From: Candidatus Bathyarchaeota archaeon | Lineage (GTDB): Archaea; Thermoproteota; Bathyarchaeia; 40CM-2-53-6 | DNA: 64,000 nt | NCBI GenBank assembly: GCA_963753065.1 | Contig: CAVWAQ010000001.1 | Span: 303,441-367,440, forward strand | Direction: 5' to 3' | In this document: positions 6,401 to 51,586 of the stretch, in pieces | How positions within the stretch are numbered: position 1 is the first letter of the stretch | Layout of the letters: every line of letters starts with the position of its first letter | Notes under the pieces: generated by a model | What the model saw: only the letters and a program-made list of their open reading frames with translations | Databases searched by the model: none | What the model was told of the DNA's origin: nothing | Made by a program: the position numbers and the translations under genes

Positions 6401-7837
6401 TTGACGAGAGTCAAACTCGAGATTCTCACAAAAGACGAGTTGAGTCAGATCCACGATGCTTCACTTGAGGTCCTCGCGAGCGCTGGAGTGCAGGTTGATG
6501 ACTCTTCCGCTCGTGAAATGATGAGAGAAGCAGGAGCCCAAGTTGACGAGAGTAAAGGAATCGTCAAGATTCCAGAGGGGCTCGTTCAGGAGGCGTTGAG
6601 GAAAGCACCGAAGGAGTTTGCATTGTATGGCAGGGATGAAGTTGAGCCACTGAGGCTCGGGCAGTGGGACACCTACTTCACTACCGGCGGTTACGCGACC
6701 TATGTCTATGATCTCACAACCGGTGCGCGAAGAGAGGTCACGTCTCGCGATCTAGCAGACGCTGTCAAGCTCGCAGATGCGCTGCCAAACTGCGACCTTA
6801 TCGCAAATCTACCTGCCGCTCCGAGGGATGTCCCACAAGCAACTCTCGACAGGCATCAGTGGGCCATCGGACTAACGAACACGCGCAAGCATGTTCTGAG
6901 CGAGGCGAGAGGCTACGACAGCGTCAAGGATGCAATTGCAATGGCCGCCACAATTGCAGGAAGCACGGACGCATTGAAGAAGCGGCCAATCATCACATTC
7001 GATGTAACGACCATTAGTCCGCTCACCCAAGATCGGCTTCAGACCCAGGAAATAGTTGGAGGCGCTAGGAACGGAATACCAGTCAGCATAAGCCCGGGCC
7101 CAATGGCAGGCGCGAGTTCTCCAGTCACCTTGGCGGGCACCATGACTCAGGCGAACGCTGAATTTCTGAGCGGCTTGGTACTCTCACAAGTTGCGTCGCC
7201 TGGTGCTCCTGTCATCTACGCCTGCTGGGCGAGACATCTGGATCAGAAGACCGCCAACGTTACCATGGGGACCCCGGAGTTTGCACTTCTGAGGGTCTGC
7301 CAAGCACAGTTGGGCAGGCACTATGGCCTGCCGACGCGTGGAGGAGGCCTTGTCACCGATTCGAAGATAGCCGACGCGCAAAGCGGATACGAAAAGATGG
7401 CTACCTGTTTGATCCCGGCGATGGCAGGATTGAACATTGTTGCAGGCATGGCAATGGTGGACTCGTTGAATACGATGAGCTTTGAGCAGTTCATCTTGGA
7501 CGAGGAGATCGTTGGATTCGCGAGGAGGGTTCTCAAGGGGATAGACGTTACCGCGGAGAAGATTGCCGCGGACATAATCAAGACGATAGGGCCTGGCGGC
7601 AGTTTCCTAGGCACAAAGCATTCTCTGAAGCATTTCAGGGAAGAACTGTGGATGCCGCAGATCTCGGATAGGACGACTTGGTCTCAGTGGCATGAGAGAG
7701 GAGAGAAGGGTGCTGAAGTCAGGGCTCATGAGGCAGCCAAGAAGCTGCTCGCCTCACACCAACGCCCCGCGTTGCCAGATGAAGTCGAGAAGAAGATCTG
7801 GAGCATTGTCCGAGAAGCCGAGAAACGCCAAGCCTAA
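6401..7837 (+). CDS. MttB-superfamily methyltransferase (trimethylamine methyltransferase family), non-pyrrolysine type
   Basis: 478 aa uninterrupted ORF. The N-terminus LEILTKDELSQIHDASLEVLASAGVQVDD is typical of the MttB family. There is no in-frame TAG. Confidence 0.75.
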   Translation: MTRVKLEILTKDELSQIHDASLEVLASAGVQVDDSSAREMMREAGAQVDESKGIVKIPEGLVQEALRKAPKEFALYGRDEVEPLRLGQWDTYFTTGGYATYVYDLTTGARREVTSRDLADAVKLADALPNCDLIANLPAAPRDVPQATLDRHQWAIGLTNTRKHVLSEARGYDSVKDAIAMAATIAGSTDALKKRPIITFDVTTISPLTQDRLQTQEIVGGARNGIPVSISPGPMAGASSPVTLAGTMTQANAEFLSGLVLSQVASPGAPVIYACWARHLDQKTANVTMGTPEFALLRVCQAQLGRHYGLPTRGGGLVTDSKIADAQSGYEKMATCLIPAMAGLNIVAGMAMVDSLNTMSFEQFILDEEIVGFARRVLKGIDVTAEKIAADIIKTIGPGGSFLGTKHSLKHFREELWMPQISDRTTWSQWHERGEKGAEVRAHEAAKKLLASHQRPALPDEVEKKIWSIVREAEKRQA

Positions 7838-27317: not shown

Positions 27318-28724
27318 TTGGAGAAACTCGGAACGGACATGTCTACATGGGCAGAGGCACTGATGGACGGCATCGACATCGACAAGTTCATCGTGTGCAC
27401 GTATATCGTGTGCTTGCCCTATGATTACGAGAACGCATTCGCCAGTATCGCCAAGGTAATCGCGGAGGAACAGTCGATCGGGACGTGGACGCACGTCCCC
27501 GAGGAAACACCCGAAGTGAGGCGCCGCTTCATCGGCAAGGTGCTTCAATGCGTCGAGATTCCGCAGTATGAGGTCGTCCGCCCCGATCGGAAGAACCGGG
27601 AACCCTTCGGCGACAAGCAGATCCCGCTCATCCCGTACCTCATGACGATCGGCTACCCAGCGGACTTGTTCAACGACGACAACTTCAGCCTCGTCTTGAC
27701 GTCGATTTACGGCAACATTTCCATGGTCGGCCCCATCCGCCTTGTCAGCGTTCGCTTTGGCAAGGAGACCATGAACCGGTACAAAGGCCCGACCTTCGGT
27801 CTCGAGGGCATTTACAAGAAGCTCAAGATCCCGATCGCTCCCGACAAAGCGACGAGGCCGCTCACGATCAACATGATCAAGCCCAAGACGGGCTATACCA
27901 AGGACGTCGGCAAGAAGATCTTCTGGGAGGCAGCCATCGGTGGCGTCGACATCATCAAGGACGACGAGATGATCGCTAACTGCGCTCAGATGGACAACGC
28001 GCTGGAGGAACGCGTCCCCATGTACATGGAGATGCGTGACAAGAAATTGGCCGAAACGGGCGAGGAGACCATCTACACCGTGAACATTTCGGACCGCATG
28101 GATCGGATGTTGGAGATGTACGACAAGGTAGTTTCGATGGGTGGTAACGGCGTGATGATCAACTACATCAACTGTGGCTGGTCGTGCGTCAAGCCATTAA
28201 CTGACAAAGGCAAACTGATCGTGCTCGGGCACACGGACGGCGGTGGTGCCTACTATGTGTCGCCCCTGTCCGGTATCTCGTCCGACCTCGTGCTCGGTAT
28301 CTTCCCGCGCATGCTCGGTATCGACATCCCGCTCGTCCCTGCCCCCTACGGCAAAGCCCCATACATCGTCGACCGGTACCTCCAGCTCTGCAAGTCGCTC
28401 ACCATGCCCCTCGGCTACGGCGACAACCAGCTCAAGGCCTGCTTGCCCTTCCCCTCCGGCGGTATCCAGACCCAGCACATTCCCCAGCTCGTTAAGGATC
28501 TCGGCCCCAACATCGGTGTCGGCACGGGCGGCGGTATCCACGCCCATCCCATGGGTACCATAGCCGGCGCCAAGGCTTTCCGCCAGGCGTTCGACGCCTG
28601 CATGGCAGGCGAGTTCGACCTCAAGAAATACGCTAAGGAGAAGAACTTGCAGGAGCTCGCCGTCTCGTTGGGCATGATGGAACTGGCTCACGATGGTTTG
28701 AAAACCATGATGAAAAAGAAGTAA
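27318..28724 (+). CDS. RuBisCO large-subunit-like protein (form IV RLP-like; not a canonical carboxylase by eye)
   Basis: EEQSIGTW, YGNIS, IKPKTG, GGVDIIKDDE, PSGGI and GTGGGIHAHP align to RuBisCO E60/T65/W66, N123, K175/K177, K201/D203/E204, S379-G381 and G403/G404. R295, H298 and H327 appear replaced (LGHTDGGG; VPAPYGK). AAAGGTG lies 8 nt before the TTG at 27318. Confidence 0.85.
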   Translation: MEKLGTDMSTWAEALMDGIDIDKFIVCTYIVCLPYDYENAFASIAKVIAEEQSIGTWTHVPEETPEVRRRFIGKVLQCVEIPQYEVVRPDRKNREPFGDKQIPLIPYLMTIGYPADLFNDDNFSLVLTSIYGNISMVGPIRLVSVRFGKETMNRYKGPTFGLEGIYKKLKIPIAPDKATRPLTINMIKPKTGYTKDVGKKIFWEAAIGGVDIIKDDEMIANCAQMDNALEERVPMYMEMRDKKLAETGEETIYTVNISDRMDRMLEMYDKVVSMGGNGVMINYINCGWSCVKPLTDKGKLIVLGHTDGGGAYYVSPLSGISSDLVLGIFPRMLGIDIPLVPAPYGKAPYIVDRYLQLCKSLTMPLGYGDNQLKACLPFPSGGIQTQHIPQLVKDLGPNIGVGTGGGIHAHPMGTIAGAKAFRQAFDACMAGEFDLKKYAKEKNLQELAVSLGMMELAHDGLKTMMKKK

Positions 28725-35737: not shown

Positions 35738-38095
35738 TTGAACGATAGAATCAAGAAGCTCCGAGAACAAAGCTTGAACGCCAAAGCTCGTCTCTCGACA
35801 GAAAGGGCGGAGCTGGTCACCGATTTCTATGGGCGTATTCGGGGCGTCTCAGCTCCGGTCCGCAGGGCTCTAGCTTTCAAGTACTTGATGGAAAACAAGA
35901 CGATCTGCATCAACGACGGAGAATTGATCGTGGGAGAGCGAGGACCATTTCCAAAAGCTGTCCCCACGTATCCAGAGCTATGCTGTCACAGCCTTCAAGA
36001 TCTGGGCATCCTCAGCGGCCGCTCGAAGGTGCCTTTCATTGTTAGCGCCGAGGATCGAGAAACCTACCAGAAGAGGATCATACCATTCTGGCAGGGGCAA
36101 TCGATGCGCGACATGATCTTTCAAGAGATGTCAGACGATTGGAAGGCTGCATACGAAGCGGGGATCTTCACAGAATTCATGGAACAACGTGCCCCGGGTC
36201 ACACGGTATTGGGCGACAAGATCTATCGCCAGGGGTTTCTCGATATCAAGGCTGACATTGAGAGAAGTTGGCAGAGTCTGGACTATCTTAACGACCCAGA
36301 GGCCTACGACAAGTGCGAAGAACTGAAGGCGATGTCCATTTGCGCAGACGCGATCATTCGTTTTGCTGTACGGCATGCTGAGAAAGCACAGGAGATCGCC
36401 AAAAGCGAGAACGATCCTCAGCGACATGAGGAGCTAGAGAAGATTGCGGACGTCTGCTCTCATGTCCCCTCGCATGCACCGCGCGATTTCTGGGAAGCCC
36501 TCCAATTCTACTGGTTTGTCCATCTGGGCGTCATCACTGAGCTGAATACTTGGGACTCATTCTCGCCTGGCCGCCTTGATCAGCACTTGTATCCATTCTA
36601 CAAGATGGGTCTTGAAGACGGGGGGCTTACTCCTGAGAAGGCGAGAGAGCTACTGGAATGTCTGTGGGTGAAGTTCAACAACCACCCCGCTCCGCCAAAG
36701 GTCGGCGTCACAGCCGCTGAGAGCGGAACATACAATGATTTCGCCGCTATCGATCTCGGTGGTCTCAGGCCAGATGGTTCCGACGGAGTGAACGAACTGA
36801 CCTACCTGATCCTTGACGTCATTGACGAGATGAGACTCATACAGCCATCGTCGAATGTTCAACTCTCCAAGAAGAGTCCTGACCGTATTCTGAAGAGGGC
36901 GTGTGAGATTGTCAGGCAGGGGTGGGGCCAGCCTTCGATCTTCAATGCGGATCTGGTCGTTGAGGAGCTTGTGCGTCAGGGAAAGTCGATTGAAGATGCC
37001 CGAACTGGAGGTACAAGCGGTTGTGTGGAGACCGGCTGTTTTGGCAAAGAAGCCTACATACTAACAGGATACTTCAATCTCGCAAAGGTCTTGGAGGTCA
37101 CGCTGAACAACGGACTGGATCCCCGTACGGGCAAGAGGATCAGTTTGCAGGCAGGAGATCCTTTGCACTTCGAGTCATTCGAGAACCTATTTGAGGCCTT
37201 CAGAAAACAGCTGAAGCACTTCGTTGATATCAAAGTCAAAGGAAACAACATCATCGAAAGACTGTACGCTAACCACATGCCTGCTCCCTTTCTTTCAACA
37301 CTCATCGACGACTGCGTGAAGCGAGGCAAGGACTACAACGACGGAGGCGCTCGATACAACTCATCCTACATAATGGGCGTGGGAATCGCCACATTAGCCG
37401 ATAGCCTAGCTGCCATCAAGTATCATGTCTTCGACGAGAAAGGACTTTCCATCACGACGCTCCTGCAGGCGCTCAAAGATGACTTCCAAGGTAACGAGAA
37501 GGTTTGCCTCTCGCTGTGGAACAAGACGCCGAAGTACGGCAACGATGACGACTACGCTGACGACCTGCTGAGAGCTGCGTTCAACATGTTCTATGATGAG
37601 ATCAATGGCAGAGGAAACACTCGAGGCGGGCTCTATCGAGTCAATTATCTTTCGACTACTTGCCATGTCTATTTTGGTGCTGTGACAGGCGCAACACCAG
37701 ACGGTAGGAGAGCTGGTGAACCTGTTTCTGAAGGCGTGTCGCCCGTGCAGGGTGCAGATCGCCATGGCCCCACGGCTGTGATCAAGTCGGTGGCCAAGAT
37801 GGATCAAGTTCGAACCGGCGGAACGCTCCTTAATCAGAAGTTCACCCCGATGTTGCTGGAGGGAGACCATGGCATTGAGGATCTCTCACATCTGGTCCGA
37901 GCCTACTTCAAGCTGGGTGGCCACCACATTCAATTCAACGTGGTAACCTCGGAGACTCTACGTGACGCTCAGGCAAACCCCGATAAGCACAGAGACCTTA
38001 TCGTCCGAGTCGCAGGCTACAGCGACTACTTCTGCGATCTCAACAAAACCTTACAGGACGAAATCATCGCCCGCACGGAACACAAATCCTACTGA
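35738..38095 (+). CDS. glycyl radical enzyme, PFL2 / glycerol-dehydratase-like (1,2-eliminase clade)
   Basis: C-terminal glycyl-radical motif LIVRVAGYSDYF...IIARTEH and thiyl loop GGTSGCVETG (Cys plus Glu, single Cys). 785 aa, collinear with B12-independent glycerol dehydratase as I remember that sequence. Confidence 0.9.
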   Translation: MNDRIKKLREQSLNAKARLSTERAELVTDFYGRIRGVSAPVRRALAFKYLMENKTICINDGELIVGERGPFPKAVPTYPELCCHSLQDLGILSGRSKVPFIVSAEDRETYQKRIIPFWQGQSMRDMIFQEMSDDWKAAYEAGIFTEFMEQRAPGHTVLGDKIYRQGFLDIKADIERSWQSLDYLNDPEAYDKCEELKAMSICADAIIRFAVRHAEKAQEIAKSENDPQRHEELEKIADVCSHVPSHAPRDFWEALQFYWFVHLGVITELNTWDSFSPGRLDQHLYPFYKMGLEDGGLTPEKARELLECLWVKFNNHPAPPKVGVTAAESGTYNDFAAIDLGGLRPDGSDGVNELTYLILDVIDEMRLIQPSSNVQLSKKSPDRILKRACEIVRQGWGQPSIFNADLVVEELVRQGKSIEDARTGGTSGCVETGCFGKEAYILTGYFNLAKVLEVTLNNGLDPRTGKRISLQAGDPLHFESFENLFEAFRKQLKHFVDIKVKGNNIIERLYANHMPAPFLSTLIDDCVKRGKDYNDGGARYNSSYIMGVGIATLADSLAAIKYHVFDEKGLSITTLLQALKDDFQGNEKVCLSLWNKTPKYGNDDDYADDLLRAAFNMFYDEINGRGNTRGGLYRVNYLSTTCHVYFGAVTGATPDGRRAGEPVSEGVSPVQGADRHGPTAVIKSVAKMDQVRTGGTLLNQKFTPMLLEGDHGIEDLSHLVRAYFKLGGHHIQFNVVTSETLRDAQANPDKHRDLIVRVAGYSDYFCDLNKTLQDEIIARTEHKSY

Positions 38096-46469: not shown

Positions 46470-47366
46470 TCATTTTCTCTTGCGGAACAACTTCAGGCCT
46501 TCGACATCGGTGACATATTCGAAACCGCTTTCGACCAAGTCTTTTGCCTCTTCGACTGTCTTTGCCACTTTGCAGATGAACTGATCACTTTCGTTGTTGA
46601 TCAAGTGAGTGTAAACGAGCGTGTTCTGTATGTTTCTATGGCCCAGCATTTGCATGACATGGAGGATATCTTTGGTTTTCTGATACTCCATCGTCGCCTT
46701 GAAGTGGCGTAGGGTCTTGAAGCTTATGCGCAGCATCTGTGGGTTCTGTAGTTTCTCAGCGATCTTTCTTCTTTGTGCGCTGAAGTTGCGGCTGAAGTCA
46801 TCCAGCGACTCGGACTTGTCGATTGCGGGATTGCGAAGGACATACTCTGAGCGGTGCGGCAAGTGATCTAGCATCATGACGAGTGAGCTTGTGATTTTCA
46901 AGCGCCTTGCTCTACTGCCTTTCTCGGGCGTAATTGTGGCGGTTCCTTGCTGAGAGTTGATGTCAACCCATCTAATGTTCCATGCCTCACCAGCGCGAGC
47001 GCCAGTCTCCTTCAATAGTTGAAGGTAGACAGCGGTCTTTTTGCCGACACCAGGAATTAGCTGATCAACTTCGCTCTCCATTGGGATGAATGGGAGCGTG
47101 TCAACAGCCACATAGTGGGGCTTGTCGAATGGAATCCGCTTGTACGTGTAGAACCTAGCCATGTGTTGAACAAGAATCGCCTTGCGCGCCTCGCTCAGTT
47201 TCGCGCCAGCCAAGTACGCTTTGACCGATTCAGGATTCAGCAAATCCGCCCGTCTAGCCAGACCCTTCAGAGACCGTACGCAAGCCCTGATGGTTGAGTC
47301 CTTGTATCCCTGTTTCATCATCCATGAGGCAAATGACAGAATCTCGCCAAGTGCTCCAGACGACAA
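46470..47366 (-). CDS. tyrosine recombinase / site-specific integrase
   Basis: ETGARAGEA (Arg I), LRHFKAT, GHRNIQNTLVYTH (His/Arg II ... Tyr). The C-terminal GFEYVTDVEGLKLFRKRK tail is typical of archaeal integrases as I remember them. The start lies 20 nt from the tRNA 3' end. Confidence 0.85.
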   Translation of the reverse strand: MSSGALGEILSFASWMMKQGYKDSTIRACVRSLKGLARRADLLNPESVKAYLAGAKLSEARKAILVQHMARFYTYKRIPFDKPHYVAVDTLPFIPMESEVDQLIPGVGKKTAVYLQLLKETGARAGEAWNIRWVDINSQQGTATITPEKGSRARRLKITSSLVMMLDHLPHRSEYVLRNPAIDKSESLDDFSRNFSAQRRKIAEKLQNPQMLRISFKTLRHFKATMEYQKTKDILHVMQMLGHRNIQNTLVYTHLINNESDQFICKVAKTVEEAKDLVESGFEYVTDVEGLKLFRKRK

Positions 47367-47385: not shown

Positions 47386-47539
47386 TGCGGGGGGTGGGAT
47401 TCGAACCCACGAAGGCCTACGCCGCAGGATCTCTCATCCCGAGGCGGATCTTAAGTGTGGCACGACTCAGAGTGGTCGTCCTGCCCCTTTGACCTGAATC
47501 CCGCCCACATCGTATCGTACGGGTCTCGGGAACCCCCGC
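47386..47539 (-). tRNA. tRNA-Leu (anticodon UAA), 154 nt gene with about three intervening sequences
   Basis: Hand fold. Acceptor GCGGGGG/CCCCCGC plus A73. T-arm GTGGG-TTCGAAT-CCCAC. D-arm CCCG..AGGG with GG. Anticodon arm CAGGA-CTTAAGA-TCCTG, assembled only after removing inserts at about 47498-47524, 47456-47478 and 47431-47449. Long variable arm. CTTTT follows the 3' end. Confidence 0.8.
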
Positions 47540-47565
47540 TCGTATCTGCTAGGATACTAGTTTGG

Positions 47566-47573
47566 CTAAAAAC
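47566..47573 (-). promoter_or_regulatory. TATA-like box for tRNA-Leu
   Basis: GTTTTTAG on the minus strand, centred about 31 nt upstream of the tRNA 5' end. Confidence 0.3.
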
Positions 47574-47623
47574 TTGTCATGGCGAACCTCAGCTCGTGGC
47601 CACATGCGGCGTGTTCTGAGCAA

Positions 47624-47631
47624 ACTATATG
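47624..47631 (+). promoter_or_regulatory. TATA-like box for the plus-strand tRNA
   Basis: ACTATATG, centred about 31 nt upstream of the tRNA 5' end at 47659. Confidence 0.3.
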
Positions 47632-47658
47632 ATGGCACAGAGGCTAGTCTCGTCGCGT

Positions 47659-47828
47659 GGGCCCGTGGCGCAGTCTCGCAGGTTGACGCCTGCTAGGCGA
47701 AATACGGACAGCGCGGCAGATAGGCCTCTTGGGCTAGCCGAGCCTCCTAAGCAAACCGCGGAACCAGCTGTAGAGTGCGTCCAAAACGCACGCAAAAGTC
47801 CGGGGTTCAAATCCCCGCGGGCCCGCCA
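47659..47828 (+). tRNA. tRNA, probably Arg (anticodon CCU), 170 nt gene with encoded CCA and about four intervening sequences
   Basis: Hand fold. Acceptor GGGCCCG/CGGGCCC, G73, CCA. T-arm CGGGG-TTCAAAT-CCCCG. D-arm GCGC-AGTCTGGACA-GCGC after removing 47677-47705. The local GCCTCCTAAGC (anticodon at 47746-47748) is completed by the distal GCA/TGT stem halves. Variable loop AG/GTC flanks 47774-47797. Confidence 0.7.
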
Positions 47829-47841
47829 TCCCCGACTCTGT

Positions 47842-49161
47842 CTATTCAGATGGCATGCGCCTGATTCGAGTGATGATCTCGTCTAGGGTCAGGGTTTCCT
47901 CTGTGCGTTTCTTCATGTCTCTGAGCTTGAACTGGCCGGATTTGAGTTCTTGAGGGCCGACGATCAAAGCATAGGGAATACCCAGCGAGTTTGCGTACTC
48001 AAGCTGTTTTGCCAGCGACTTGCGCTTAACATCCACATCTGAAGCGATTCGAGCGTCACGAAGCTTAGCTGCAATCGAGAGTGTATGCTGTCTAACTCAT
48101 CATTCACCGCGGCCACGAACACAGTCCCAACTTCTTTGTGCTTGGGAAGTACGCCGGCCTTCTCCAGTGAAATCAGCAGTCTCTCGACACCTCCGGCAAC
48201 TCCTGTCGCTGGAATGCTCCTTTTTCCATAGACGCCGCAGAGTCTGTCGTATCTTCCTCCTCCAAGCACCGCTCCAACCTCTTCTCCTCCTTTGTCGAAT
48301 GCCTCGAAGACGATGCCATCGTAGTATCCGATACCCCTAACGACACTCATGTCGAATAGGCAACGATCCAGTTTGCCTAGACCTTGCAGCGCGTCAGCCA
48401 GCAGCGACGAGTTGCCTGTATCCCAGTTTTGCTTCCTCGCTTCGTGTTTGCACTTCAGAGATCTTCTCGAGAACGCTGGCAGGTTTATCCTGGATCGATA
48501 TGAATTCAACCAGTGAATCAGTGACGCTGCTCTCTAGGCCCGCGGAAAGAAGCTCGGTCTTGACAGCCTCAGCAGAGATCTTTCGAGACTTGTCGACTGT
48601 TCGGAACACTGCCTCGATTTTCTCTTGACTCTTCAACCCCAAGCTTTCGACGAATCCCTGTATGACTTTACGATTCGAGATTCGCACTTCGAATTCCTTC
48701 AACCCAACGTTGCTTAGAATGTCCATGCTTAGGGCGACGGCTTCTGCGTCAGCTGTTGGGTCATCGGATCCGAAGATCTCCGCGTCCCATTGAGTGAAGT
48801 ACCTGTATCGGCCAAATTGTGGTTCATCATATCGCCAGTTTCCGCCAATACACGCGAACTTGATTGGTTCAGGGAGGTCGGAGCGACCAGCTACCATGCG
48901 AGCCATACCGACCGTGAGGTCGAACCTGAGGCCGATGCTGCGGCCTGCCTTGTCGTTAAACCAGTAGATCTCATCCTTGATCGCCGGTCCACTCTTGGCT
49001 TCTAGGGTTCTGAGTTCCTCAAGCGTCGCGGGTTCCATTTCTTGAAAGGCGTATCTTCGAAACATCTCTCTTATTCTCTCGTAGACCCAGTTTCGCTTCG
49101 CCATCTCATCTGGCTCGATATCCCTGATACCTCTCGGCAAGGTGAACTGCTTGTCTGACAT
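47842..49161 (-). pseudogene. hisS: histidine--tRNA ligase, broken by two frame shifts (near 48395-48440 and near 48085-48095)
   Basis: Three consecutive ORFs carry collinear HisRS parts. The first has LPRGIRD...RFDLTVGMARM...WRYDEPQFGRYRYFTQWDAEIFG. The second has FDMSVVRGIGYYDGIVFEAF...GGGRYD...IPATGVAGGVERL. The third has the anticodon-binding end (KRKSLAKQLEYANSLGIPYALIVGPQEL). My hand translation of the third frame bridges the second gap (VRQHTLSIAAKLRDARIASDVDVK). Confidence 0.85.
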
Positions 49162-49911: not shown

Positions 49912-50451
49912 CTAGACTCTGAGGAATTCAAGTGAATAGTAGACGATGTCAGTTCGTCTGTCAACCACGGCGAGTATCAGGTCTTTCTTGTCCCTGGAGG
50001 CTCGTTTCAGCAGTGTGCGAAGCGTCTTGAGGTCGGCTTCACCGCCTTCGTAGATTATGTAGACGTACCTTCGCATCGGTCCCTTTCCGTGGACCTCGAA
50101 ATCGAAAACGGGGCATTCTCTGACAACATATCCTCTGTCGCGGAGGTCGCGATATACGAGGTACTTCACCCAGACTGCAGGTTGCCTCGTAGAAACCGAC
50201 TTCACCAGTTCCTCGAATGTGATGTTCTCTTTGTTCTTTCCCTCGACGGTAATCCTGCCCTTTTCGAGAAGATAGAAGGCCTCGTGAGATGTGAGAACGA
50301 GTCTTCTTCCCTTCAGCGTTCCGAAACCGCGCTCACGCATCTCCATCAGTTCTGAGGCTCTCGGAAGGAAAACTTCGCCTGCTCGCAGGGAAGCTTCGTA
50401 GACCTGGAATGGCTTCTCGCTCTCCGACTCATTCGCTGTGTGCTCAGTCAC
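49912..50451 (-). CDS. endA: tRNA-splicing (intron) endonuclease
   Basis: 179 aa. YLVYRDLRDRGYVV, FEVHGKG and KKDLILAVVD fit the Tyr/His/Lys catalytic triad context of archaeal EndA. Confidence 0.8.
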   Translation of the reverse strand: MTEHTANESESEKPFQVYEASLRAGEVFLPRASELMEMRERGFGTLKGRRLVLTSHEAFYLLEKGRITVEGKNKENITFEELVKSVSTRQPAVWVKYLVYRDLRDRGYVVRECPVFDFEVHGKGPMRRYVYIIYEGGEADLKTLRTLLKRASRDKKDLILAVVDRRTDIVYYSLEFLRV

Positions 50452-50529
50452 GTGCAGTCAATCCGAGGCCATCTACGCCGACCTTGCACTTTTAATGTAA
50501 TCGCGCCACGCACTACAGTGGCGTCACAT

Positions 50530-51586
50530 ATGGTTGACCTTACGACTCTGAGGACTGTAGAATGGACTCGTGACGGTGTGCGACTAATTGATCAGAGGCA
50601 GCTGCCAAACCGGCTGACATTTCTCTTGTGCAGGAACTACAGGCAAGTCGCTCGAGCGATACGCGACATGACCGTGAGAGGGGCGCCCGCCATCGGAGTG
50701 ACCGCGGCGATGGGCTTGGCCCTGGCAGCAAAACGCAGCAGACACAGCGACGGAAAGATGCTATTGCTCGACGTTGAGAAAGCCGCAGAGATCATCCGAG
50801 CGACACGACCCACCGCGAGAAACCTGTTCTGGGCGGTCGAGCGAATGCTCGGGAAAGCCCGAGAGGCGGCTGATCAGGGACGTGACATGCGAGAAACGCT
50901 CGCGGCTGAAGCACAGCTCATGGCCGATGAAGACGTGCAAGCCAACCGGAAGATGGGAGCCTACGGCGCAGAGCTGATTCAAGACGGGGATACGATCCTA
51001 ACGCACTGTAACACAGGCACGATGGCCACGGTGAGCTATGGAACGGCCTTAGGAGTAATCCGAAGTGCGATCTCGCAAGGCAAGAAAGTCAAACTCATCG
51101 CAACCGAAACTAGGCCTAGACAGCAAGGTGCCAGAATAACTGTCTATGAGGCTTTATCAGACAAGATCCCCGACGACCTTGATAGTTGATAGTGCTGTCG
51201 CGATCACGATGTCAAGAGGCATGGTAGACAAGGTCATCGTGGGCGCCGATCGCATAACTAGGACTGCAGTCGCCAACAAGGTGGGCACTTTCATGATCGC
51301 GCTCGCAGCCAAACATCATAGTATTCCATTCTACGTTGCGGCACCTACTACAACCTTCGACCTGACCATAGAGCCCACTGCCATGTCGATCGAAGAACGT
51401 GATCCCAGGGAAGTCACTGAGATTAACGGAAGGCAAATCACACCAAAGAAGGGGGTCAGGGTTTTCAATCCAGCCTTCGACTTGACTCCGTTAGAACTCG
51501 TCACCGCCGTCATCACAGAAAAAGGAGTCCTTTCAAGAGAACAGATTCAGAACATGACCAAGATCAGACCGAATACTGGCGGTTAG
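50530..51586 (+). pseudogene. eIF-2B alpha/beta/delta-family isomerase (MtnA 5-methylthioribose-1-P isomerase or ribose-1,5-bisphosphate isomerase), frame shift at the C4 run 51168-51171
   Basis: ORF 50440..51189 (LIDQRQLP..., RGAPAIGV, THCNTG, ETRPRQQGARIT) and ORF 51146..51586 (TTLIVDSAVA...VGADRI...ANKVGT...PFYVAAP) fuse as ...DKIPTTLIVDSA if one C is removed. The start is taken at the ATG at 50530. Confidence 0.8.

Follow-up and report, generated by a model that had tools for sequence, protein, structure and literature searches.

Transfer RNA genes interrupted by several introns have mostly been regarded as peculiar to the hyperthermophilic Thermoproteales. Such genes are on record from Pyrobaculum, Thermofilum, Caldivirga and Vulcanisaeta (Sugahara et al. 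2007/2008, as cited in PMC4033280 and PMC8450103); closely spaced introns in this order need iterative removal (PMC8450103), and according to reviews an archaeal tRNA gene has no more than three introns (PMC4033280, PMC8450103). The target of the archaeal splicing endonuclease is the bulge-helix-bulge (BHB) motif, in which a 4-bp helix (H) lies between two 3-nt bulges that are cut after their second nucleotide; the strict form, hBHBh′, is completed by outer (h) and inner (h′) helices (PMC7714728, PMC6379350). The heteromeric (αβ)2 enzymes of the TACK superphylum also cut relaxed motifs (PMC5829648, PMC6379350), and the EndA of ARMAN-2 is of the ε2 type (PMC3239211, PMC3488258). Thaumarchaeota carry non-canonical tRNA introns, for which tRNAscan-SE 2.0 has a clade-specific model (PMC8450103), and in the red alga Cyanidioschyzon merolae nuclear tRNA genes hold up to three BHB introns, whose ordered removal was shown experimentally (PMC3728597).

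Positions 47386–47539 (minus strand) of the 64-kb stretch of DNA analysed here, which we call the window, hold a 154-nt locus of four exons and three introns. We are highly confident that it works as a tRNA-Leu(UAA) gene in a Bathyarchaeia archaeon and carries three BHB-type introns. Multi-intron archaeal tRNA is a kind already known; what is new here is the host lineage, the breadth of conservation, an adjacent EndA homologue that appears non-catalytic and a neighbouring gene with four apparent introns. The likeness to Thermoproteales lies in short BHB-type introns, up to three per gene, at canonical and non-canonical sites; in their close spacing, by which one intron leaves before the next motif forms; and in reliance, as we infer for the window, on a broad-specificity (αβ)2 endonuclease. 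Unlike Thermoproteales, the host is a soil and sediment Bathyarchaeia lineage rather than a hyperthermophilic crenarchaeon, the three-intron architecture of the tRNA-Leu gene is conserved over at least 88 sequence variants, and the neighbouring gene appears to exceed the published maximum of three.

Two further tRNA-Leu(UAA) genes, from a Micrarchaeota MAG (L025:5600–5818, plus strand, 219 nt) and an ‘uncultured archaeon’ MAG (L050:1621–1845, plus strand, 225 nt), share with the window the isoacceptor, the 15-nt 5′ exon GCGGGGGTTCCCGAG, a D-loop intron after G15 and an intron at 37/38. Their third intron, however, lies in the T-loop instead of at 30/31, their introns are far longer and unrelated in sequence, and the enzyme type in Micrarchaeota and other DPANN is ε2. 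C. merolae resembles the present case in its ectopic and multiple BHB introns, the order of removal there following motif availability and stability (PMC3728597), but it is a eukaryote with another endonuclease complex, and some of its genes are also permuted. Thaumarchaeota, likewise mesophilic members of TACK, are rich in non-canonical introns and have an (αβ)2 EndA, although they form a different class.

Read from 47539 to 47386 on the minus strand, the tRNA-Leu gene runs GCGGGGG...CCCCCGC-A (GCGGGGGUUCCCGAG...GUGGGUUCGAAUCCCAC-CCCCCGC-A). Its 7-bp acceptor stem is perfect, its T arm (GTGGG-TTCGAAT-CCCAC) is canonical, and both A73 and a long variable arm are present, just as an earlier sequence-only reading had described it. 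Exon 1 (47525–47539; tRNA positions 1–15) provides the 5′ strand of the acceptor stem, U8 and U9, the 5′ strand of the D-stem, A14 and G15, and is followed by a 27-nt intron in the D-loop at 15/16 (intron 1; 47498–47524). Exon 2 (47480–47497; positions 16–30) carries the rest of the D arm, G26 and the 5′ strand CAGG of the anticodon stem, and is separated by a 23-nt intron at 30/31 (intron 2; 47457–47479) from a 7-nt micro-exon, ACUUAAG, which holds the anticodon UAA and G37 (exon 3; 47450–47456; positions 31–37). A 19-nt intron at the canonical 37/38 site (intron 3; 47431–47449) precedes exon 4 (47386–47430; positions 38–73), which supplies the 3′ strand of the anticodon stem, the long variable arm, the T arm, the 3′ strand of the acceptor stem and A73; CCA is not encoded. 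The gene thus has the class II variable arm, A73, anticodon UAA and purine 37 of a tRNA-Leu.

To handle the precursor we number its nucleotides as p = 47539 − coordinate + 1, and cut out p16–42, p62–84 and p91–109. The remaining 85 nt form a class II cloverleaf, identified by ARAGORN as tRNA-Leu(taa), as the sequence-only reading had proposed, and the lengths add up (154 − 85 = 69 = 27 + 23 + 19). When only introns 1 and 2 are taken out, ARAGORN itself reports tRNA-Leu(taa) and places a 19-nt intron at the canonical position. The predicted junctions of the spliced RNA are GAG|UCAGG, CAGG|ACUUAAG and UUAAG|AUCCUG, or, as DNA, CCCGAG|TCAGGTC and GGGGCAGG|ACTTAAG|ATCCTG. Unspliced, the gene escapes standard tools: ARAGORN at default settings made no tRNA call anywhere in the 64-kb window, and Rfam at its gathering score found no tRNA match in it; at a permissive E-value the T arm alone fits the tRNA model (14.6 bits). 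An ARAGORN search of the window that allowed introns, one of the checks proposed in the sequence-only reading, called the neighbouring gene, as tRNA-Ser(gct).

We scanned the precursor for the exact BHB register of a 4-bp central helix flanked by 3-nt bulges. The scan recovers all three junctions, as pairs (15,42), (60,83) and (90,109), so that a BHB or relaxed BHB motif stands at every exon–intron junction. At intron 1 (i = 15, j = 42) the central helix is CCCG/CGGG (C10–G13 with C37–G40) and the bulges are AG|A and AU|U; a 6-bp inner hairpin (17–22/31–36) is present and there is no outer exon helix (h = 0), which makes the motif a relaxed HBh′. At intron 2 (i = 60, j = 83) the outer helix pairs A52–U87, G53–U86 and G54–C85 (52–54/85–87; h = 3), the central helix is GGCA/UGCC, the bulges are GG|A and AC|A and the inner helix is CGAC/GUCG (h′ = 4), giving a strict hBHBh′ motif. 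At intron 3 (i = 90, j = 109; h = 1, h′ = 3) the central helix CUUA/UGAG lies between two AG|A bulges, with UCC/GGA as inner helix; the anticodon stem serves as its outer helix, cannot form until intron 2 has been removed, and then makes the motif strict.

This register, together with homologues, agrees with the sizes and sites first proposed for introns 1 and 3. For intron 2, the proposed length and splice product hold, whereas the label 31/32 and the span 47478–47456 give way under the cleavage rule to 30/31 and 47479–47457. The product is identical in both placements because A61 and A84 are both A, and the anticodon exon, which had been put at 6 nt, then measures 7 nt (ACUUAAG) or 6 nt, according to which of these As is retained.

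BHB motifs on their own are no proof of this structure, because a crude count of BHB-like motifs is not above chance (shuffled sequences equal it in 11–70% of trials), because ARAGORN, in an exhaustive enumeration that is too permissive, admits some 20 alternative combinations of crude candidates, and because the nearest-neighbour energy model favours another fold: the BHB conformers lie at −50 to −53 kcal/mol, 16–18 kcal/mol worse than the precursor minimum free energy (MFE) of −68.8 kcal/mol. Folding energy by itself therefore neither supports nor refutes the BHB model. After introns 1 and 2 are removed in silico, the MFE fold consists of the cloverleaf arms and an extended anticodon helix bearing the intron hairpin, and the fully spliced sequence folds as a cloverleaf. 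Proof of the structure comes from the exact register at all three junctions taken together with comparative data.

A scan of metagenomes for genes with both intron 1 and intron 2 matched at least 120 contigs. Among the matches listed were 110 complete genes, representing 88 distinct sequences of 147–174 nt, and all 88 have three introns at the identical three sites, with lengths of 17–40 nt (intron 1), 21–33 nt (intron 2) and 15–20 nt (intron 3). In an alignment of 89 tRNA-Leu sequences, 12 of 85 exon columns vary, as against 57 of 69 intron columns (Fisher p = 2.7e-18); exon 1 and the ACUUAAG of exon 3 show no variation at all, and the C at position 44 of the window's tRNA is found in no other of the 89. 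The BHB register is retained throughout: pairing in the motifs of introns 1 and 2 extends to 93.3% of cells, compared with 43–56% when the partners are slid by 1–3 columns, and none of 500 shuffles reached the covariation score. The central helices are paired in 99.2% (intron 1) and 96.9% (intron 2), and the intron-2 hairpin in 97.5%, with 27, 24 and 28 double-sided compensatory changes at its three variable pairs. Intron 3 is weaker in other clades, its central helix having mostly three pairs (the fourth is A–U in 26 of 89 sequences) and its hairpin often only 1–2 bp. Exons that are kept, introns that drift and intron helices that compensate are the evolutionary signature of a tRNA with BHB introns, and judged from these alignments the comparative evidence for the predicted three-intron structure is decisive.

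Orthologous tRNA-Leu(UAA) genes were also returned by a scan of a genome collection with the 5′ exon. The gene of a DHVE2 genome (L034) is intron-free, 85 nt long and nearly identical to the spliced tRNA of the window in an end-to-end alignment; that of a Hecatellales genome (L079) has the 37/38 intron only; and those of two Thermoproteota MAGs (L001 and L026) have a single intron at the intron-2 site, 30/31, which in L001 keeps the GGCA/UGCC helix of the window with a different hairpin. Intron 1 is missing from all four. The gaps of the five-way alignment add up to 69 = 27 + 23 + 19 nt, and the D-loop left by the intron boundaries (15,42) is equal in length to those of L001, L026, L079, L046 and L097.

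These data bear on the possibility that the locus is a real tRNA gene with another exon–intron structure, either with intron 1 spanning p16–38, that is, ending 4 nt earlier with an outer helix that unwinds the acceptor stem, or with one of the ARAGORN-accepted identities Ser-AGA, Gln-CUG or Leu-CAG. The register scan does list (15,38), with a 5-bp outer helix, and the roughly 20 further combinations that ARAGORN takes point the same way; the motifs concerned are weak, however, variable columns would fall within exons, and the alternative anticodons sit in segments that differ between close relatives. The p38 site is rejected because it would place in an exon the freely varying position 42, which is T, G, C or A in homologues whose exons are otherwise invariant, and would make the D-loop 4 nt longer than in orthologues, which the (15,42) boundaries match. 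We regard any such alternative structure as very unlikely.

The 119-nt spacer between the tRNA-Leu gene and a divergent tRNA-Arg gene holds a TATA-like box on either side. One, at 47565–47572 (GCTAAAAA, which reads TTTTTAGC on the tRNA-Leu strand), lies 26–33 nt upstream of the tRNA-Leu 5′ end on the minus strand; the other, CTATATGA at 47625–47632 (plus strand), lies 27–34 nt upstream of the tRNA-Arg 5′ end. Both are conserved in 24 distinct intergenic sequences, in which the middle of the spacer is variable, and the two boxes would be the archaeal TATA boxes of the two tRNA genes. A short GCTAG motif is also conserved in the spacer (47540–47658), about 10–20 nt upstream of both genes and on either strand, and a T-run is present after the tRNA-Leu gene.

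Could the locus instead be a decaying tRNA-Leu pseudogene that lost its function to three unrelated insertions? Its invisibility to ARAGORN and Rfam, an integrase gene starting 20 nt downstream and frameshifts in nearby genes could all be read in this way. Decay would not be expected, though, to leave exons near-invariant while introns drift across 88 distinct homologues among the matches listed, to produce compensatory changes in an intron hairpin, to place each junction in BHB register, to conserve a promoter box or to yield a perfect spliced cloverleaf, and we give this explanation even less credence than an alternative structure. Least probable of all, to the point of being negligible, is an artefact of a chimeric or error-rich region of the draft assembly, for although the gene for histidyl-tRNA synthetase (HisRS) carries two frameshifts and mtnA one, all within 4 kb, and the 98%-identical orthologues are intact, the architecture recurs in one NCBI assembly and in at least 120 independent contigs, which span many soil and sediment samples, and this recurrence effectively refutes it.

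For the three-intron tRNA-Leu gene, we propose the following route to the mature molecule. The gene would be transcribed from its own TATA-box promoter into a 154-nt precursor, in which exon and intron segments would pair to form the three BHB motifs; a splicing endonuclease would cut between the second and third nucleotides of each 3-nt bulge, and an RtcB-type ligase would join the exons. Structurally, intron 1 does not depend on the other two, and because it carries only a relaxed HBh′ motif it would need a broad-specificity enzyme, presumably the heteromeric (αβ)2 endonuclease usual in the superphylum. Introns 2 and 3 are entangled. Nucleotides 85–87 are shared by the outer helix of intron 2 and the central helix of intron 3, intron 2 splits the anticodon stem that is the outer helix of intron 3, and cutting both introns together would free a 7-nt exon held by only 3–4 base pairs. 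From these three features our model predicts that splicing is probably ordered, intron 2 being excised and its exons ligated before intron 3 is cut.

A candidate component of this machinery is encoded nearby. The gene at 49912–50451 (minus strand), 2.37 kb from the start of the tRNA-Leu gene, specifies a 179-aa EndA-family protein with both Pfam EndA domains, the N-terminal and the C-terminal endonuclease domain. The sequence-only reading had pointed to an endA gene 2.4 kb away, and the distance holds; as a catalytic enzyme, however, the protein falls short, lacking the catalytic His and scoring 49.6 bits against TIGR00324 (NCBIfam endA), below the cut-off of 59.6. Aligned with EndA of M. jannaschii (1a79) and with the α unit of M. 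kandleri (5x89), it has His at the Tyr site and Arg or Tyr at the His site, and retains the Lys. The Tyr-His-Lys triad, Y295/H303/K334 in M. kandleri EndA (PMC5829648), is accordingly not in place. Across 12 family members (53–100% identity) the segment is devoid of His and R127–R128 are invariant; the family comprises more than 500 environmental sequences and as a whole lacks the catalytic histidine, and the Tyr position holds His in the subclade of the window's protein and Tyr in other subclades.

The best NCBIfam alignment of the protein covers positions 22–163 of the 290–350-aa α′2-type models, which corresponds to their N-terminal repeat, the one that we take to be non-catalytic. The match to the NCBIfam β models is weak (28.5 bits, cut-off 157). 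An HMM search of the window and 120 related loci for a second EndA gene found only orthologues of the same gene, so that no catalytic EndA subunit was found in the window or the related loci, nor RtcB in the window. Judging from its residues and alignments, the protein is probably a structural, β-like subunit of the splicing endonuclease, and in the scheme above it would be the non-catalytic subunit of the (αβ)2 enzyme, which fits the TACK (αβ)2 endonucleases that cut relaxed motifs. A structural EndA subunit had been suggested as something to look for, and the nearby protein is probably that subunit, whereas a second EndA did not appear in the window or the related loci. Since the nearby protein lacks the catalytic His, the catalytic subunit would have to lie elsewhere.

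The divergent neighbour, missed in the sequence-only reading, is a tRNA-Arg(CCU) gene at 47659–47828 (plus strand), 120 nt upstream of tRNA-Leu, with an encoded CCA and four predicted introns: 29 nt at 15/16 (47674–47702; 16–44 in the gene's own numbering), 23 nt at 30/31 (47720–47742; 62–84), 16 nt at 37/38 (47750–47765; 92–107) and 24 nt at 45/46 (47774–47797; 116–139), all on the plus strand. Their removal yields a perfect 78-nt cloverleaf with encoded CCA that ARAGORN identifies as tRNA-Arg(cct), with the predicted junctions GCGCAG|TACGGA and GGCAG|CCTCCTA|AGCTGTAG|GTCCGG. Invariant blocks among 22 homologues delimit five exons; varying columns number 2 of 75 in exons (two D-loop pyrimidines) compared with 52 of 92 in introns (p = 2.3e-15). 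All four junctions are in BHB register, with 91.9% of cells paired against 30–49% when slid. In this shallow sample covariation is modest, 31 of 500 shuffles reaching the score, and because the outermost pair of the central helix is usually or always mismatched in three of the four motifs, these motifs are relaxed. When ARAGORN is run with its intron search, it reads 47659–47828 as tRNA-Ser(gct) with an 80-nt intron, a call that is wrong because the ‘anticodon’ varies and covaries as a hairpin among the 22 homologues.

The strongest support for the four-intron model comes from a natural variant. A 111-nt homologue (L176:3013–3123, minus strand) has the introns at 30/31 and 37/38 only, and the gaps in its alignment fall on the predicted D-loop intron and match the 24-nt intron at 45/46 precisely (GCUGUAG|GUCC). 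Literature searches, which were incomplete in coverage, turned up no report of a four-intron archaeal tRNA or of Bathyarchaeia tRNA introns. On balance, and with little more than even confidence, we favour the view that the tRNA-Arg(CCU) gene has four BHB-type introns with exons of only 7 and 8 nt, that it is the most fragmented cis-spliced tRNA gene described, and that together with tRNA-Leu it marks a widespread soil and sediment clade of Bathyarchaeia as a second, independent hotspot of tRNA introns with conserved and necessarily ordered multi-step splicing.

Assignment of the window to a Thermoproteota-type archaeon, as first proposed, is corroborated by the HisRS gene, whose product is, in its N-terminal part, 98% identical to ‘MAG: histidine--tRNA ligase [Candidatus Bathyarchaeia archaeon]’. 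The gene content, with an MttB-family methyltransferase (6401–7837), a RuBisCO large-subunit homologue (27318–28724), a PFL-like glycyl-radical enzyme (35738–38095) and HypF/HypD, fits an anaerobic Bathyarchaeia genome. A relative (L241; NCBI GCA_040961635.1) has an EndA of 72% identity, shares the neighbourhood of HypFCD, PhoU, MtnA, EndA, DUF5518 and HisRS, and holds both tRNA genes, of 156 and 168 nt.

The HisRS gene (47845–49161, minus strand) has two frameshifts, near 48405 and 48095 (frame −2, then −3, then −2), in a reading frame that is intact, at 439 aa, in orthologues of 98–99% identity; the breaks are either assembly indel errors or the mark of a very recent pseudogene. The gene for an MtnA/eIF-2B-related isomerase (50440–51586, plus strand) is split into two overlapping ORFs of 249 and 146 aa, whereas its orthologue in L241 is a single 344-aa protein, and this break lies within 3 kb of the one in HisRS. 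Since two genes close by carry frameshifts, the tRNA too may contain single-base errors.

On the other side of tRNA-Leu, a tyrosine integrase gene (46470–47366, minus strand) starts 20 nt past the tRNA 3′ end; it matches Pfam Phage_integrase and the PHROG integrase family and scores far under the XerA cut-off. Of about 70 related contigs, 6 have homologues or fragments of it (41–97% identity) in the corresponding position and L241 has none there, a distribution that suggests repeated integration beside tRNA-Leu. When the tRNA 3′ end was sought as an att-type direct repeat, which would delimit an integrated element, only chance matches of 9–12 nt came up. The 3.3 kb from an acyl-CoA synthetase gene to the tRNA contain three small ORFs that match no family.

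Related metagenome contigs (L138, L160 and L172) contain more tRNA-like genes of 94–172 nt with intact acceptor and T arms, among them CCCGCGGTAGCTCAG... at 150–172 nt and GCCGCCGTAACG... at 129 nt. They are likely to be further multi-intron tRNAs from this lineage, which suggests that intron proliferation may be a trait of the whole clade.

Our results mean that the multi-intron tRNA phenomenon is stably conserved in an abundant, uncultured and mesophilic lineage. Because standard finders such as ARAGORN and Rfam miss both tRNA genes, the tRNA complements and completeness estimates of such MAGs will come out too low. The locus is a natural test set for how endonuclease and ligase deal with 7–8-nt exons and mutually exclusive motifs, and for splicing order, and the series of intron presence and absence (none, 30/31 only, 37/38 only and all three in tRNA-Leu; two versus four in tRNA-Arg) makes intron gain datable. 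The four-intron tRNA-Arg gene, if confirmed, would raise the known upper limit of tRNA gene fragmentation.
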